64,000 nucleotides of DNA, taken from positions 32,150 through 96,149 of the forward strand of contig JAZDJQ010000001.1 of assembly GCA_043803765.1 (NCBI GenBank), given 5' to 3'. The notes under the pieces were generated by a model. That model made no database searches. It was not told the DNA's origin and saw only the letters and a program-made list of their open reading frames with translations. Numbering within the stretch: position 1 is the first letter of the stretch; the number at the start of each line of letters is the position of its first letter. The position numbers were made by a program, and so were the translations under genes. Origin of the DNA: Candidatus Iainarchaeum sp. (GTDB lineage Archaea; Iainarchaeota; Iainarchaeia; Iainarchaeales; VGJJ01). Shown here in pieces: positions 16,682 through 24,888 of this stretch.

Positions 16682-16755
16682 GGGGCCATAGCTCAGTCTG
16701 GTAGAGCAGCGGACTCTTAATCCGCGTGTCGAGGGTTCAAATCCCTCTGGCCTCG
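16682..16755 (+). tRNA. tRNA-Lys (CTT)
   Basis: Cloverleaf; GCGGA-CTCTTAA-TCCGC anticodon arm. Confidence 0.95.
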
Positions 16756-16761
16756 TTTGTT

Positions 16762-16825
16762 ATTTTTTTCCCCGGGGTTTTTTCTGTGAAGAAAAAAGGC
16801 CGGTTCTGAATCCCTCTGGCCTCGT
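16762..16825 (+). repeat. Hairpin repeat unit plus copy of the tRNA-Lys(CTT) 3' end
   Basis: 16764-16802 is identical to 18004-18042; AATCCCTCTGGCCTCGT is repeated at 16809-16825. Confidence 0.85.
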
Positions 16826-16874
16826 CTTGTTTTTTTCCCATTCAGAGGATTGCAATAGAGCCCCCTTGTTCCTA

Positions 16875-17630
16875 TTATTTTCTCTTGAGCGCTTCCGTAA
16901 AAGATTTGATTCCTTCAAACAGGTCCACGGGGACGAGGATGACCGTGTTGCTAGGCGTTGGTCCTAATCCATCGATGGATTGGAGTGTTCGTAGTTGCAT
17001 GGCCCCTTGCGTTTCTCCCATGATGCGTGCGGCTTCTGCGAGGTTCTTTGCTGCGAGCTTGTCTCCTTCGCTTTTGGTGATGTTCGCTCGTTTCTCTCTT
17101 TCCGCGCTTGCCTGTCTTGACATGATTCGTTTCAGGTCTTCCGGCATCTCAATGTCTTGCATTTTGATGCTTTCTATTTCCAGCCCCCATTGTTTGCTTT
17201 CTTTTTCTACGATGGCTGCTATTTGTTCCCCTATTTTTTGTCTTTCCGCCAGCACGTCATCTAGGTTCATGTTTCCTATCACATCGCGTAGTGCGGTTTG
17301 AGCATATTGGGATACCGCGTATACGTAATCTTGTACGTGGATGATTGCTTTTTGTGCATCTTCGACTCTAAAATATACAACTCCATTGATTGCAACTGGA
17401 ACATTGTCTTTGGTGATGGCTTGCTGTCTTGGAATGTCCATGGTGAGCACGCGCATGTCCACGGTTACACTGCGGTCGATGATGGGGATGATGAAATTGA
17501 GTCCGGGGGATAGTGTTCCTTTGTATTTTCCTAGCCGGAAAATGACGGCTGTTTCATATTGTTGAATGAGTCGAATGCTGGCGACGATAATTAAACCCAC
17601 TACTGCAATTCCAACAAATTCCCATACCAT
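16875..17630 (-). CDS. SPFH/stomatin (band 7) protein
   Basis: N-terminal TM; FRLGK..PGLNFIIPIID, ITKDNV, AQTALRDVIG, QASAEREKRA. Confidence 0.92.
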   Translation of the reverse strand: MVWEFVGIAVVGLIIVASIRLIQQYETAVIFRLGKYKGTLSPGLNFIIPIIDRSVTVDMRVLTMDIPRQQAITKDNVPVAINGVVYFRVEDAQKAIIHVQDYVYAVSQYAQTALRDVIGNMNLDDVLAERQKIGEQIAAIVEKESKQWGLEIESIKMQDIEMPEDLKRIMSRQASAEREKRANITKSEGDKLAAKNLAEAARIMGETQGAMQLRTLQSIDGLGPTPSNTVILVPVDLFEGIKSFTEALKRK

Positions 17631-17829
17631 GTTTTTGCCCCCTTGTTTATTCTTTCTTTCTTCCTATCTTTCTAAAAACCCCTTTCTTCACGGGTTGCTT
17701 TATAACCATTATTTGGTGATTTTCCTAGGTACATTGCCATGGTTGCGGTGGTGTTTTTTCCCCCCGCTGGCATTCGATGGACAGCAATGGGTTTTCCAAC
17801 TCTTTGTTTTCCTGTATACGCTCAACGAG

Positions 17830-17903
17830 GGGGCCGTAGCTCAGCCTGGTAGAGCAGCGGACTTTTAATCCGCGTGCCGTGGGTTCAAATCCCACCGGCC
17901 TCG
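17830..17903 (+). tRNA. tRNA-Lys (TTT)
   Basis: Cloverleaf; GCGGA-CTTTTAA-TCCGC anticodon arm. Confidence 0.95.
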
Positions 17904-17959
17904 TTCGTGCGTAATCTCGCGTGGTGAGGAAGTAAGGGTTTCTTTTCAGGAACCCAGAT

Positions 17960-18116
17960 TCCCGTGTTTTTTTTCTGGTTAGAAAAAGGCCGTTGCGTAG
18001 CCATTTTTTCCCCGGGGTTTTTTCTGTGAAGAAAAAAGGCCGTTGCGACAGCAATTTTTCCCCGGGGTTTTTGCCCAAAGGCAAAAAGGCCGGTTCTGAA
18101 TCCCACCGGCCTCGTT
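17960..18116 (+). repeat. Three tandem 50-bp hairpin units plus copy of the tRNA-Lys(TTT) 3' end
   Basis: AAAGGCCG at 17985, 18035 and 18085; AATCCCACCGGCCTCGTT is repeated at 18099-18116. Confidence 0.85.
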
Positions 18117-18224
18117 GTTATTTTTTCCCCCTATTAACCCGTTTGCTATTTTTTTCTTACCCAAACCTTTTTTTCCTCCAGTTGTGCTTAATTGTTCTAT
18201 AATACTTTCGGGAGGTATTTCCTT

Positions 18225-18785
18225 ATGGTTCGAAAATCGGTTCCTAAAAAATCATCCAAAAAGTCCCTTTCGGTGGATGTGAACGCATCTTCTCCTTCTT
18301 TTGAGATGAGTGCGCTTCATTCCCAGCTTCGTAGTATGCAGGAGCGTATGGATCGGTTGTTTAATTCTTCTTTGTTTGAGGATCCTCTTACGGGTTTGTC
18401 TCTTTCTGTTCCATTGCGTTTTCCTTTGAGGGGAATGTCTTCTGATTTTCCTCTTGCGCGTCCTCTTTCTGATTTTTATGAGACGAAAACGCAGGTGTGT
18501 GCGGATGTTGATTTGCCCGGGATAGAGAAGAAGGATATTCAACTGAATGTTTCTCAGGATAGGGTGGAGATTAAAGCATCCAAATCTCATGAGTCAAGGG
18601 AAGATACGAAGGGAGAATTTCGTATGGAGCGTTCCTATTCTGGTTTTTATCGTACGTTTACGTTGCCTTCGCATGCCGATACGTCTAAGTTGCATGCGAC
18701 ATTTGAGAATGGAGTGCTTCACCTGCGTATTCCCAAGCGTAAGTCGTCTTCTTCTCCTTCTTCGCGTCGTGTTCCGGTTGAATAG
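18225..18785 (+). CDS. Small heat-shock protein Hsp20
   Basis: DLPGIEKKDIQL, ERSYSGFYRTFTLP, ATFENGVLHLRIPK; GGAGG SD. Confidence 0.92.
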   Translation: MVRKSVPKKSSKKSLSVDVNASSPSFEMSALHSQLRSMQERMDRLFNSSLFEDPLTGLSLSVPLRFPLRGMSSDFPLARPLSDFYETKTQVCADVDLPGIEKKDIQLNVSQDRVEIKASKSHESREDTKGEFRMERSYSGFYRTFTLPSHADTSKLHATFENGVLHLRIPKRKSSSSPSSRRVPVE

Positions 18786-23608: not shown

Positions 23609-23682
23609 GGGGCTGTAGCTCAGCCTGGGAGAGCACATCGCTGAAGACGATGGTGTCGCGTGTTCAAATCACGCCAGCCCCA
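23609..23682 (+). tRNA. tRNA-Phe (GAA)
   Basis: Cloverleaf; CATCG-CTGAAGA-CGATG anticodon arm. Confidence 0.95.
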
Positions 23683-23897
23683 CTTATTTTCTATTTTGTT
23701 GATGCTGTTTTACGTGGAAGTCGATTTTGTCTCCATTTTTTTGGGGGGATTGTGCTTCTTTTTTTTGTTAGGATGTGCGGCGCATTCCATTACCTAGCTA
23801 TTTCGCTTTTTTTGAAATCGCATCCAGCAAAAATACCCTTGTCGCGGGTGGCGTTTTTCCCACGATTATGCGGGACATAAAAGACCGATGGACTAGT

Positions 23898-24008
23898 CTA
23901 TAGTTTTCCAATTGCTTCCAATAGTTTTCGGTGCGGTTTCACCAGCTTGTTGAACAGTTCAAACTCTTCCCTGACGATAGCCAATCGTTCCTTATCGCTT
24001 AAACGCAT
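23898..24008 (-). CDS. 36-aa putative antitoxin partner of the Fic/Doc protein
   Basis: Manual translation MRLSDKERLAIVREEFELFNKLVKPHRKLLEAIGKL; overlaps the 3' end of the Fic gene. Confidence 0.6.
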   Translation of the reverse strand: MRLSDKERLAIVREEFELFNKLVKPHRKLLEAIGKL

Positions 24009-24390
24009 TGATTTTTCCATGTTGTATCCACTCCTTGATTTCTTCGTCCGTATAATATCCCTCGCGTATTCCCGTCATGGTTTTGGCGTTGTCGGGATTG
24101 TCTGCAATGTTTGATTTAGCATTGTTCAGCGTTAAAAAATAAGTGGTCGCGAGTAGAGCCGTGCGTCGATTCCCGCTGGCAAATGCATGTTTTTGGATGA
24201 TTCCTTTCATCAAAATAACTGCCTTGTCATACGTATCTCCTTTCGTTTGTTCACAGTTTCGCAAAACTTCTCGTATTTTCGTCTCACTCAACACTTTGGG
24301 CGAGTCGGCCTTTTTGGCCTTCAACAGCATTAGCGCCAACAGGTTGAGTTCGATGATTTTCTCCACGGAAGGATAGCCAATCATATCCAT
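23992..24390 (-). CDS. Fic/Doc family toxin
   Basis: HAFASGNRRTA matches HxFxxGNxR. Confidence 0.9.
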   Translation of the reverse strand: MDMIGYPSVEKIIELNLLALMLLKAKKADSPKVLSETKIREVLRNCEQTKGDTYDKAVILMKGIIQKHAFASGNRRTALLATTYFLTLNNAKSNIADNPDNAKTMTGIREGYYTDEEIKEWIQHGKINAFKR

Positions 24391-24420
24391 TTTCCGGAAT
24401 GACTGCCTAAAAAAGGTATG

Positions 24421-24451
24421 GGTGTCGCGTGTTCAAATCACGCCAGCCCCA
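24421..24451 (+). repeat. att-like direct repeat of the tRNA-Phe 3' end
   Basis: Identical to 23652-23682. Confidence 0.92.
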
Positions 24452-24465
24452 TTTTTTTTCCTGAA

Positions 24466-24888
24466 TTAGTATTTCAATGGATCGATTCGTTTTATTCCTT
24501 GTACCTTGTCAAAATCCGTGTCGGCTGAAATGATTTCCTTGACATCATTTAGTTCCATTGTTGCCAAATGGATTCTGTCGGCGCCAAATAACGTGTTTTC
24601 ATACGTTGCGGCTTTCTTGATGGTGAATAAATCAGTATCTTGCCACGCGATAGGATAACTCATGAGTGCGTCCATATTTTTTGGCAAATCTAGCTCTCTT
24701 TCCTTTTGTCTTCTTTTTTCACTATTTATTTTTTGGATGACTCCAATCATTTCAATGAGGGTTAACTGTGATGACGTCACTTTTAGTTTTCCATTTTCAA
24801 TGTCTTCTAGGATTCTCGTGCATGCTTTGCCATACTTGTCGCTGTTTTCGATAGCGTACCCAAATATGTTGGTGTCAATATATTTCAT
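24466..24888 (-). CDS. vapC: PIN-domain toxin (VapC)
   Basis: YIDTNIF, TLIE, ADRIHLAT, IISADTDFD. Confidence 0.9.
   Translation of the reverse strand: MKYIDTNIFGYAIENSDKYGKACTRILEDIENGKLKVTSSQLTLIEMIGVIQKINSEKRRQKERELDLPKNMDALMSYPIAWQDTDLFTIKKAATYENTLFGADRIHLATMELNDVKEIISADTDFDKVQGIKRIDPLKY

Follow-up and report, generated by a model that had tools for sequence, protein, structure and literature searches.

Hairpin arrays behind the two lysine tRNA genes

What are the hairpin arrays that follow both lysine tRNA genes in a 64,000-nucleotide (nt) stretch of Candidatus Iainarchaeum sp. (contig JAZDJQ010000001.1 of assembly GCA_043803765.1), and why does each of them close in the 3' end of the very tRNA that it follows? 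This stretch (the window) covered C1:32150-96149 of the source genome, designated G000; other G numbers denoted genomes of relatives, and L numbers denoted loci. The two Lys arrays were, on balance, probably two of at least 13 G000 sites of lineage-specific, gene-less, modular hairpin insertion modules that re-copied the end of their target. The observations behind this answer were the module anatomy, the covariation of the stems, the recurrence across the genome, the differences in occupied sites between two species, the presence of a near-identical module at two tRNAs, each with its own tRNA end, and one filled/empty pair. G000 comprised 1.02 Mb in 19 contigs with 41-44% G+C, was 93% complete, and carried 46 tRNA genes; no tmRNA gene was found in it.

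tRNA-Lys(CTT) (16682-16755, + strand; Rfam RF00005 70.2 bits, ARAGORN) had its T-loop TTCAAAT at 16736-16742 and was followed by a T-rich trailer TTTGTTATTTT (16756-16766, + strand, by sequence reading) running into the T-run of a single hairpin unit. This back hairpin (hp3; 16767-16803, + strand) displayed the structure TTTCCCCGGGG–TTTTTTCT–GTGA–AGAAAAAA–GGCCGG; it was found as an inverted repeat and also as a match (C1:48916-48952, E 1.5e-9) to covariance model R1, which was built from the back hairpin. Behind it lay (i) the T-loop look-alike TTCTGAAT (16804-16811, + strand), 8 nt long (T-loop plus one) and preceded by GG, (ii) a copy of the tRNA end from nt 58 to discriminator +1 (16809-16825, + strand), 17/17 identical to 16740-16756, and (iii) 14 nt beyond this copy (16826-16839) that were similar to the trailer of Lys-CTT itself, with two 1-nt indels.

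tRNA-Lys(TTT) (17830-17903, + strand; Rfam 70.6 bits; T-loop at 17884-17890) was followed by a 54-nt front part (17904-17957, + strand) folding into hairpin 1 (ca. 17906-17923) and hairpin 2 (17936-17955; GGGTTTC–TTTTCA–GGAACCC), and then by three hp3 units, a number that came from a short-read metagenome bin: (i) unit 1 (17958-17993, + strand; 76% direct-repeat match), with a degenerate left clamp ATTCCCGTG and the stem TTTTTCT–GGTT–AGAAAAA; (ii) unit 2 (18007-18043, + strand; R1 match C1:50156-50192), identical to the Lys-CTT unit in 36/37 nt; and (iii) unit 3 (18057-18093, + strand; inverted repeat and R1 match C1:50206-50242), with the compensated stem TTTTTGCC–CAAA–GGCAAAAA. The linkers GTTGCGTAGCCA (17993-18004) and GTTGCGACAGCAA (18043-18055), with unit 2 between them (span 17994-18056, + strand), each formed a mini-hairpin GC–N3/4–GC and then the T-run of the next unit. 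The array was closed by the look-alike TTCTGAAT (18094-18101, + strand) and a copy of the tRNA end from nt 58 to discriminator +2 (18099-18116, + strand), 18/18 identical to 17888-17905. The two Lys end copies differed at exactly two positions, those at which the two tRNAs themselves differed.

These coordinates bore out the first-pass annotation in its count of one unit after Lys-CTT and three after Lys-TTT, and in its statement that both arrays close in GGTTCTG plus the 3' end of their own tRNA. The exact 50-bp period that it gave for Lys-TTT had to be corrected, because the unit starts lay 49 and 50 nt apart (Tandem Repeats Finder: period 50, 2.1-2.2 copies, 81-85% matches). The hairpin unit that it described was real, but this unit is the back hairpin alone, and Lys-TTT has the two front hairpins (17904-17957) as well.

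The Lys hairpins had arms of 13-14 nt that were 85-86% complementary and loops of 4 nt, and every hp3 unit carried T-runs on both strands. Taken alone, the folding energy of a single unit was weak (z -0.91) and that of the array was better (z -2.79). A read run, X1, held 0.07 of the sampled words; it covered only tRNA-like pieces plus part of an SPFH gene, missed the arrays, and was uninformative on copy number. This SPFH/Band 7 gene (16875-17630, - strand; Pfam PF01145 E 6e-43) sat between the two Lys tRNA genes on the opposite strand, convergent with tRNA-Lys(CTT), while an Hsp20 gene (18192-18785, + strand; Pfam PF00011 E 1e-20) followed the Lys-TTT array.

Module anatomy and covariation

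A full module was ca. 105-120 nt long, began 0-6 nt past the tRNA discriminator, and displayed the order hairpin 1 (resembling a T-arm, with the loop TTYCG)–short conserved linker–hairpin 2–T-run–back hairpin–GGTTC plus an extra base plus G. Across sites, the modules measured 70-250 nt and contained no ORF (open reading frame) and no gene. Short forms, as at Lys-CTT, consisted of the T-run and the back hairpin, and the back hairpin could be amplified in tandem (three times at Lys-TTT), with one to seven units per array. Because relatives showed this composite build, Lys-TTT was read as a full module with a triplicated back hairpin and Lys-CTT as a short form; the Lys-TTT front part (17904-17958) aligned weakly with the two-hairpin trailer family of relatives. 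In G002, tRNA-Ser(TGA) was followed by three unlike modules of full build in succession, each closed by TTCTGAAT plus the tRNA end, and Leu-CAG of G000 had the same full build as these.

The hairpins are constrained for pairing. Among 20 G000 units, 85% of cells were paired, and 14 both-side changes were counted versus 4.4 in shuffles (0/500 as high). The 48 R1 matches in 44 loci of relatives were 92.3% paired and had 61 both-side changes versus 20.1 (0/500), in an alignment that was fitted to model R1, which favours structure; slid controls for this alignment gave 42-72% paired. The outer GC clamp covaried as well (GC 22 and AU 19 at one pair), and in the front hairpins of 14 sequences 12/14 predicted pairs were maintained through both-side changes. 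The earlier proposal that the hairpin keeps its pairing while its sequence changes thus held in G000 and in relatives, and so did its description of a structured, expandable, tRNA-targeted mini-element, given the covarying stems, the one to seven tandem units and the common layout behind many tRNAs.

The T-loop look-alike with its extra base recurred at tRNAs having different loops (TTCAAAT and TTCGAAT). In the Rfam search only tRNAs reached the gathering score, the next best match being P26 (22.1 bits versus 36), and on six module-bearing loci no Rfam match was obtained for any module part. Several readings of the closing segment and the clamp were tried and set aside: (i) CTGA in TTCTGAAT as part of a C/D box, since copy and tRNA run in the same sense and C box partners are lacking; (ii) a minus-strand primer-binding site, which lacks TGG for CCA; (iii) a minihelix in which the clamp pairs with the acceptor copy, valid solely for tRNAs ending in GGCC; and (iv) a triplex of the upstream TTTTTCC parallel to AAAAAGG, at most partly consistent by inspection.

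Recurrence behind other tRNA genes

The copy search was applied to every tRNA gene with the 13 nt after the T-loop, over 400 nt on each side and allowing one or two mismatches. Downstream copies of the tRNA's own 3' end were found at 8/46 G000 tRNAs (≤1 mismatch) or 12/46 (≤2 mismatches), while upstream and inverted copies numbered 0/46 each (13-mer, ≤2 mismatches, 400 nt); by our own arithmetic, ca. 0.2 matches per 46 tRNAs were expected by chance. A direct repeat reaching from the tRNA loop to the 3' end around an insert, the mark of a scar of an attachment (att) site, was therewith present at 12/46 tRNAs, both Lys genes included.

Eleven of these 12, together with Val-GAC and Gln-TTG (decayed copies with three mismatches), shared one layout: a long back hairpin of GC-clamped T-run/A-run type, directly followed by GG/GCG, TTC, one extra base, (G)AAT and the tRNA-specific part, so that the copy came after a look-alike of the T-loop that was longer by one base. 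In every case, identity to the tRNA began 2-5 nt ahead of the T-stem. The twelfth, Thr-GGT, had another layout without the look-alike. Three hairpin types were distinguished: (i) type A, the Lys unit, at Lys-CTT, Lys-TTT, Arg-CCG, Leu-CAG, Arg-TCT, Gln-CTG, and Leu-CAA; (ii) type B, with the polypyrimidine/polypurine stem GACCGGGCGCGAC–TTTTCTTTT, at Ala-GGC, Arg-GCG, and Pro-CGG; and (iii) type C at Val-TAC and Gln-TTG. Decayed copies with two to three mismatches were those of Gln-CTG, Val-GAC, Gln-TTG, and Arg-GCG. A special link to tRNA-Lys was not supported, the same layout being present behind many other tRNAs of G000. All tRNA-linked modules lay on the strand of their tRNA; a strand bias suggested by six type-A array sites of the first pattern, all on the + strand, was dismissed on this account.

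Type-A arrays were also found away from these copies. The array behind tRNA-Ala(TGC) had no tRNA copy, and four arrays had no adjoining tRNA: C18:54740-55020 (six to seven units), C6:12333-12505 (four units), and one each on C12 and C14 (two units each). All four adjoined the stop codon of a mechanically called ORF. The linkers GAAGTGAAACAAC and GATGTGAAACAAC of two of them (C12:36772-36790 and C18:55014-55030) were similar to the last codons GAATTACAAC and GAATCACAGCAAC of the adjacent minus-strand ORFs, both of which would end in ...EL(L)*; such arrays may duplicate protein-gene ends or even provide them. A candidate C/D-box small RNA was noted just behind the module of tRNA-Leu(CAG), at C18:93192-93251 (L149:1640-1699), with 25 bits against an Rfam threshold of 39.

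Distribution and turnover in relatives

Model R1 had matches in 27/41 relatives and in 15/16 genus members, ranging from 0 to 34 per genome, with patchy occurrence elsewhere in the order; G000 had 24 matches, and G003 had the most in the genus (34). In the single-contig genome G015 of the same genus, downstream copies stood at 8/32 sampled tRNAs, with 0 upstream and 0 inverted. The 14 occupied tRNAs sampled in G000 and G015 comprised two common ones (Ala-GGC and Arg-GCG), six found in G000 only, and six in G015 only. In 11 relatives, the orthologous Lys loci had hairpins of other sequence or none, and the Lys copies of relatives followed each genome's own tRNA (e.g., CATCGTCCTCG in G011). Further copies were thus found both behind other tRNAs and in relatives, and independent insertion, one of the origins proposed earlier for the allele-specific ends, fitted better than a single duplicated Lys locus, as relatives' Lys hairpins differ and the occupied tRNAs vary by species.

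The G011 modules at tRNA-Ser(TGA) and tRNA-Asn(GTT) were identical over ca. 95 nt except for one 1-nt indel; the identical stretch included TTCCAAAT despite the differing T-loops of the two tRNAs, after which each module continued into its own tRNA's end. The Ser module additionally contained a nested 51-nt two-hairpin insert in hairpin 1 (L176:1545-1605), flanked by the 6-nt duplicate GGCGGG, and this insert was missing from the otherwise identical Asn module (L202), giving a clean filled/empty pair. Behind Lys-TTT, G011 had two exact 60-nt tandem units, and a metagenome contig of independent origin had them too. In G015 (L114), tRNA-Gly(GCC) and tRNA-Gly(TCC), 1 kb apart, were followed by the same 104-nt module; the TCC module alone closed in its tRNA's end, without the GTTCCGA motif there. 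The duplicates measured 6, 16-19, 26, ca. 33, and 43 nt, the longer ones extending into trailers.

Single cases in other families came from motif-led searches. Metagenome loci carrying relatives of the SPFH gene numbered 80, with 16 tRNAs; L023 and L024 were informative, and both duplicated genomes already in the set. Viral contigs gave 24 exact 16-mer matches, about the chance level, and 1/24 had a weak model match.

Copies at other gene ends

The same logic appeared at tRNA 5' ends. Duplicates of a tRNA's first 16-17 nt stood upstream of 4/46 G000 tRNAs (downstream control, 0/46), namely, tRNA-Arg(TCT), Arg(TCG), Ser(GCT), and Arg(CCG), the last with two copies; by eye, Ser(TGA) was added. 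These copies lay 70-185 nt upstream of the genes, with hairpin modules between, at C7:3062-3160, C9:10790-10883, C18:15850-15926, C18:91510-91701, and C7:19236-19330. The Arg 5' modules were alike, with the order 5' copy–hairpin with loop TTTCGT–GCACCGA–GGACTA–second hairpin–CAATAGGCC. Among relatives, G014 and G006 likewise had modules at tRNA 5' ends, G005 had one where a protein gene ends, G012 at a 3-copy repeat, and G029 between tandem tRNAs, and a type-A hairpin lay within an opposite-strand tRNA gene of G039 (L186, ca. 1440-1580) at an anticodon-loop (intron-like) position.

Search for a mobilising activity

The protein families of known mobilising enzymes were searched in G000 and in the genus. 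RVT_1, TnpB, Cas1, and resolvase gave 0 matches in G000 (93% complete), and rve and IS1595 were each present in 0/17 genus genomes. DDE_Tnp_1 occurred in 4/17 genus genomes (one gene in G000), and Y1_Tnp occurred in 3/17 genus genomes and 8/41 relatives. A Xer-like tyrosine recombinase was present in 17/17 genus genomes and was the sole one in 5/17, including G003; the tyrosine recombinases were either Xer-like or element integrases of 444-476 aa. Within the window, the genus-wide Xer-like recombinase (294-aa ORF, 160 bits) lay at 2360-2848, ca. 2 kb from tRNA-Met (4864-4934). The IS200-type Y1 gene of G000 (C4:202-621; L019, C4:202-930) was located at a contig start, ca. 230 nt downstream of tRNA-Arg(CCT), and had its own GC-rich end hairpins unrelated to the modules.

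Five enzyme-based readings were discarded on these data: (i) a link to repetitive extragenic palindromes (REPs) and their Y1-type transposases (RAYTs), since the single sporadic Y1 gene is flanked by hairpins unlike the modules; (ii) retro-copying that halts at T-loop position 58, there being no reverse transcriptase and no CCA in the copies; (iii) a TnpB guide RNA with scaffold plus flank as guide, as G000 lacks TnpB; (iv) a Cas1-type ruler, as it lacks Cas1; and (v) a serine recombinase, none being found in G000.

Integrated elements proper were observed at other tRNA genes. The element at tRNA-Met spanned at least 17.4 kb. Downstream of tRNA-Tyr, five copies of the 13-nt 3' core lay at 2.2, 4.7, 5.6, 6.4, and 10.0 kb (C12:125765-135874), suggesting stacked elements. 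The tRNA-Ile(GAT) end copy, 671 nt downstream (C18:127308), was preceded by the arm TTGTTCATTACAAAAGGCAGTTT, as at the 17-kb tRNA-Met element (C14:7237-16070). In the window, tRNA-Phe(GAA) (23609-23683) and a perfect 30-nt duplicate of its T-arm/3' end (ca. 24424-24453) bounded a ca. 750-nt insert (23609-24453 in all) with two ORFs on the - strand, one of the Fic/DOC family (23992-24390; Pfam E 8e-8) and the other of 40 aa (23898-24020), i.e., an integrase-less gene cassette between att-like repeats; a PIN-domain ORF (24466-24888, - strand) came next.

Origin of the modules

If the arrays are insertions of this kind, the target would be copied again on insertion from T-loop position 58 to the tRNA end and sometimes into the trailer, so that the gene would stay intact proximally and a dead copy, fused to the 8-nt look-alike, would remain distally. 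The arrangement of n hairpins with n+1 ends, the intact gene, the over-long look-alike, and the occurrence of one module at different tRNAs together point to a duplicate that was made from the target and not borne by the module. Re-copying may have proceeded by copy-choice (template switching) or recombination, with the T-loop-like right end of the module as guide, and these routes were favoured over a fixed-stagger transposase because no enzyme tracks the modules and the duplicates vary in length (6 to ca. 44 nt). Alternatively, an enzyme of unknown kind might act in trans or be supplied by a virus or plasmid. The T-run plus hairpin is a putative two-way terminator, archaeal oligo-T terminators being runs of at least five T where a transcription unit ends; by stopping transcription from both sides, it would render the insertions tolerable.

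A bolder interpretation can be offered only tentatively: the modules may represent a new class of mobile DNA, in which gene-less hairpin modules home to the conserved loops of tRNAs by T-arm mimicry, re-copy the gene end by copy-choice or an unknown structure-specific activity, and, in ultra-small archaea, seed long tRNA introns, fragments of tRNAs, and duplicated gene ends. Under this interpretation, and with the same reserve, the homing loops could be the T-loop on the 3' side and the D-loop on the 5' side, the essential gene never being broken. In the 1-Mb genome, a gene-less module is present at roughly one in four tRNA genes and leaves them whole, and the sites differ between sister species. 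A duplicate made from the target would mean harmless insertion into essential genes, of which no description was found in the literature, and, if true, it would provide a testable source of partial tRNA copies, of long or oddly placed tRNA introns, and of split tRNA genes in DPANN and other archaea. For annotation, the modules pose a hazard: they give rise to spurious att sites and spurious partial tRNAs, and their repeats cause breaks in metagenome bins.

Several points weigh against reading the arrays as target-copying insertions. No mobilising protein tracked the modules among the families searched (RVT_1, TnpB, Cas1, resolvase, Y1, DDE/rve/IS1595, and tyrosine recombinases), and the word mobile therefore describes the distribution of the modules alone. 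The filled/empty pair was a nested insertion with a 6-nt duplicate, and none was seen at a tRNA itself; the near-identity of the G011 modules could also be explained by gene conversion between two older modules. The order of decay within stacks was inconsistent, the farthest copy being the worst at Ser-TGA of G002 and the nearest at Lys-CTT of G006. Duplicate lengths of 6-43 nt mean that no single known enzyme fits, and the recurrent look-alike with its extra base (TTCTGAAT, TTCCGAAT) would be simpler as the core site of an integrase. Two genomes of other families had copies at 0/26 sampled tRNAs, and the behaviour is thus narrow. Unit numbers from short-read bins are unreliable, and the predicted termination and co-transcription derive from sequence.

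The core-site argument leads to an alternative that we regard as rather unlikely, namely, that the modules are attL/attR remnants, or gene-less cis-mobilisable derivatives, of a tyrosine-integrase element carrying its own tRNA end; the element would have recombined in the T-loop, and the hairpin plus GGTTC–N–GAAT would be its arm and core. The duplicate does begin in the T-loop, reportedly a sublocation of integrase sites in tRNA genes as set out by Williams in 2002, and it stops at the end of the tRNA or close to it. G000 has true integrated elements with duplicates of this sort at tRNA-Met, tRNA-Tyr, tRNA-Ile(GAT), and tRNA-Phe; those at tRNA-Met and tRNA-Ile have a common arm and different tRNA-specific cores, and arm families can therefore change tRNA; and tyrosine recombinases are present in all 17 genus genomes. 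Against this stand the lack of any ORF in the modules, the five of 17 genomes that have a Xer-like enzyme only (among them G003 with its 34 hairpin matches), and the lack of resemblance between the hairpin end and the arms that the true elements have at tRNA-Met and tRNA-Ile. A T-loop crossover in which the element brought its own end would leave a chimeric, dead tRNA, yet the ca. 95-nt identical G011 module stands at two tRNAs, each with its own end; moreover, hairpin arrays also occur distant from tRNAs, and duplicates extend over 26-43 nt into trailers. That nothing has moved at all is less probable still, i.e., that the hairpins are ordinary terminators or insulators of the lineage, the copies arose in place, at the hairpin, by replication slippage or unequal exchange, and the likeness comes from constraint plus gene conversion. 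The exact tandem units (60 nt twice in G011; 49/50 nt at Lys-TTT), the T-runs on both strands, the ORF stop codons adjoining all four non-tRNA arrays, and the transposases that do not track the hairpins agree with this. Slippage, however, predicts n hairpins and n ends closed by non-tRNA sequence, whereas n and n+1 were observed, always closed by tRNA sequence; and three unlike modules at one tRNA (Ser-TGA of G002), an identical 8-nt look-alike where the tRNAs' own loops differ, the discrete nested insertion in the G011 Ser module, and the almost disjoint sets of occupied tRNAs in G000 and G015 are not accounted for.

It is very unlikely that the modules are a functional RNA device, in which the trailer would be processed to a small RNA or the distal copy would serve, as a decoy or as another partner, the 5' half of the tRNA or the enzymes that act on tRNA ends. 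The strong covariation is in its favour; so are the front hairpins at Lys-TTT and Leu-CAG, which come directly after the discriminator and before the first run of at least five T and, from their position in the sequence, could be co-transcribed with the tRNA. UUCG-like and GNRA-like loops (GTGA, GAAA), types that are stable in RNA, are frequent, and GGCCGGT pairs with ACCGGCC of the copy at Lys-TTT. Yet such clamp–copy pairing is limited to tRNAs ending in GGCC, the occupied tRNAs vary between species, copies have decayed by two to three mismatches at four tRNAs, no Rfam match was obtained, and the tRNA-end copy sits behind T-runs. An assembly artefact of the metagenome bin is hardly credible: assembly of short tandem repeats is difficult and the unit number is unverified by reads, but the layout recurred in 17 separately assembled genomes, in a single-contig genome, and on independent metagenome contigs. 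Target-copying insertion by hairpin modules remains the preferred explanation.

Comparison with known systems

tRNA genes are classic landing sites for mobile DNA, and the mechanisms known to us at such sites require an element-borne tRNA end plus an integrase. The modules resemble att duplicates and cis-mobilisable elements (CIMEs) in the direct repeat of the tRNA 3' part from the T-loop, the intact tRNA, and the stacking at one tRNA, but they differ in their small size (70-250 nt), their lack of genes, the presence of each tRNA's own end, the variable duplicates, and the arrays away from tRNAs. A helper integrase or related element with module arms was not found among the G000 elements compared (tRNA-Met and tRNA-Ile), and the tRNA block was not that of an attP, as the identical G011 modules end in Ser- versus Asn-specific sequence, which gene conversion could mimic.

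REPs and the bacterial interspersed mosaic elements (BIMEs) and REPINs related to them are many-copy extragenic compensated palindromes of bacteria that form arrays at gene ends and are served by RAYT (Y1) transposases; duplication of a tRNA end is not a feature of REPs. The modules shared with them the many extragenic imperfect palindromes, the compensated stems, and the gene-end arrays, but Y1 was present in 3/17 genomes with other hairpins at its flanks, and the module units were direct, not alternating. Rickettsia palindromic elements, pneumococcal BOX, Neisseria Correia elements, and MITEs (miniature inverted-repeat transposable elements) are likewise small, non-coding, structured, modular, and multi-copy, and may lie in or beside RNA genes. 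Unlike these, the modules showed a variable duplicate of 6-44 nt instead of the fixed short target duplication of MITEs, and they had a strong preference for tRNA gene ends. Clear terminal inverted repeats were not seen in them; a motif was common to the loop of the left hairpin (TTYCG) and the module's right end (TTCYG), and no parent insertion sequence was found with the three DDE Pfam families searched.

Cas1-type integrases act in casposons at tRNA 3' ends and in CRISPR repeat duplication. The arrangement of n inserts between n+1 target segments, segments longer than usual target-site duplications, and the tRNA end were alike, but G000 lacks Cas1, the module duplicate varies in length, and the inserts are hairpins, not captured DNA. 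IS200/IS605 and Helitron/IS91 elements have a subterminal hairpin near the right end and make no target duplication; the modules matched them in a hairpin ca. 10 nt before the right end and in an end motif similar to the target (GGTTC–N–G versus the T-arm GGTTCR), but a T-loop insertion would cut the tRNA in two, G000 lacks TnpB, and Y1 is sporadic. Integron attC sites work with the IntI integrase and paired R''/R' cores RYYYAAC...GTTRRRY. An inverse core 5' of the Lys hairpin was not found by inspection, IntI-specific features not being searched. The suggestion of an empty integration platform was therefore not supported, as no integron-type integrase and, by inspection, no R''/R' core pair around the hairpin were found.

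The literature search returned no description of gene-less hairpin modules that duplicate tRNA ends. PMC3293823 deals with an element of 1.8 kb that sits at a tRNA-Thr gene and bears a recombinase, and is thus of a different kind from the modules. Att duplicates, REP/RAYT, MITE-like repeats, Cas1-type duplication, and the tyrT repeats each miss at least one tested defining feature. The distal 178-bp repeats of Escherichia coli tyrT (rtT region) are said to carry the tRNA-Tyr 3' end in each repeat, and they thus share with the modules the tandem units behind a tRNA, each containing that tRNA's last nucleotides. The tyrT repeats, however, are long units at one locus in one lineage, while the modules described here stand at many tRNAs.

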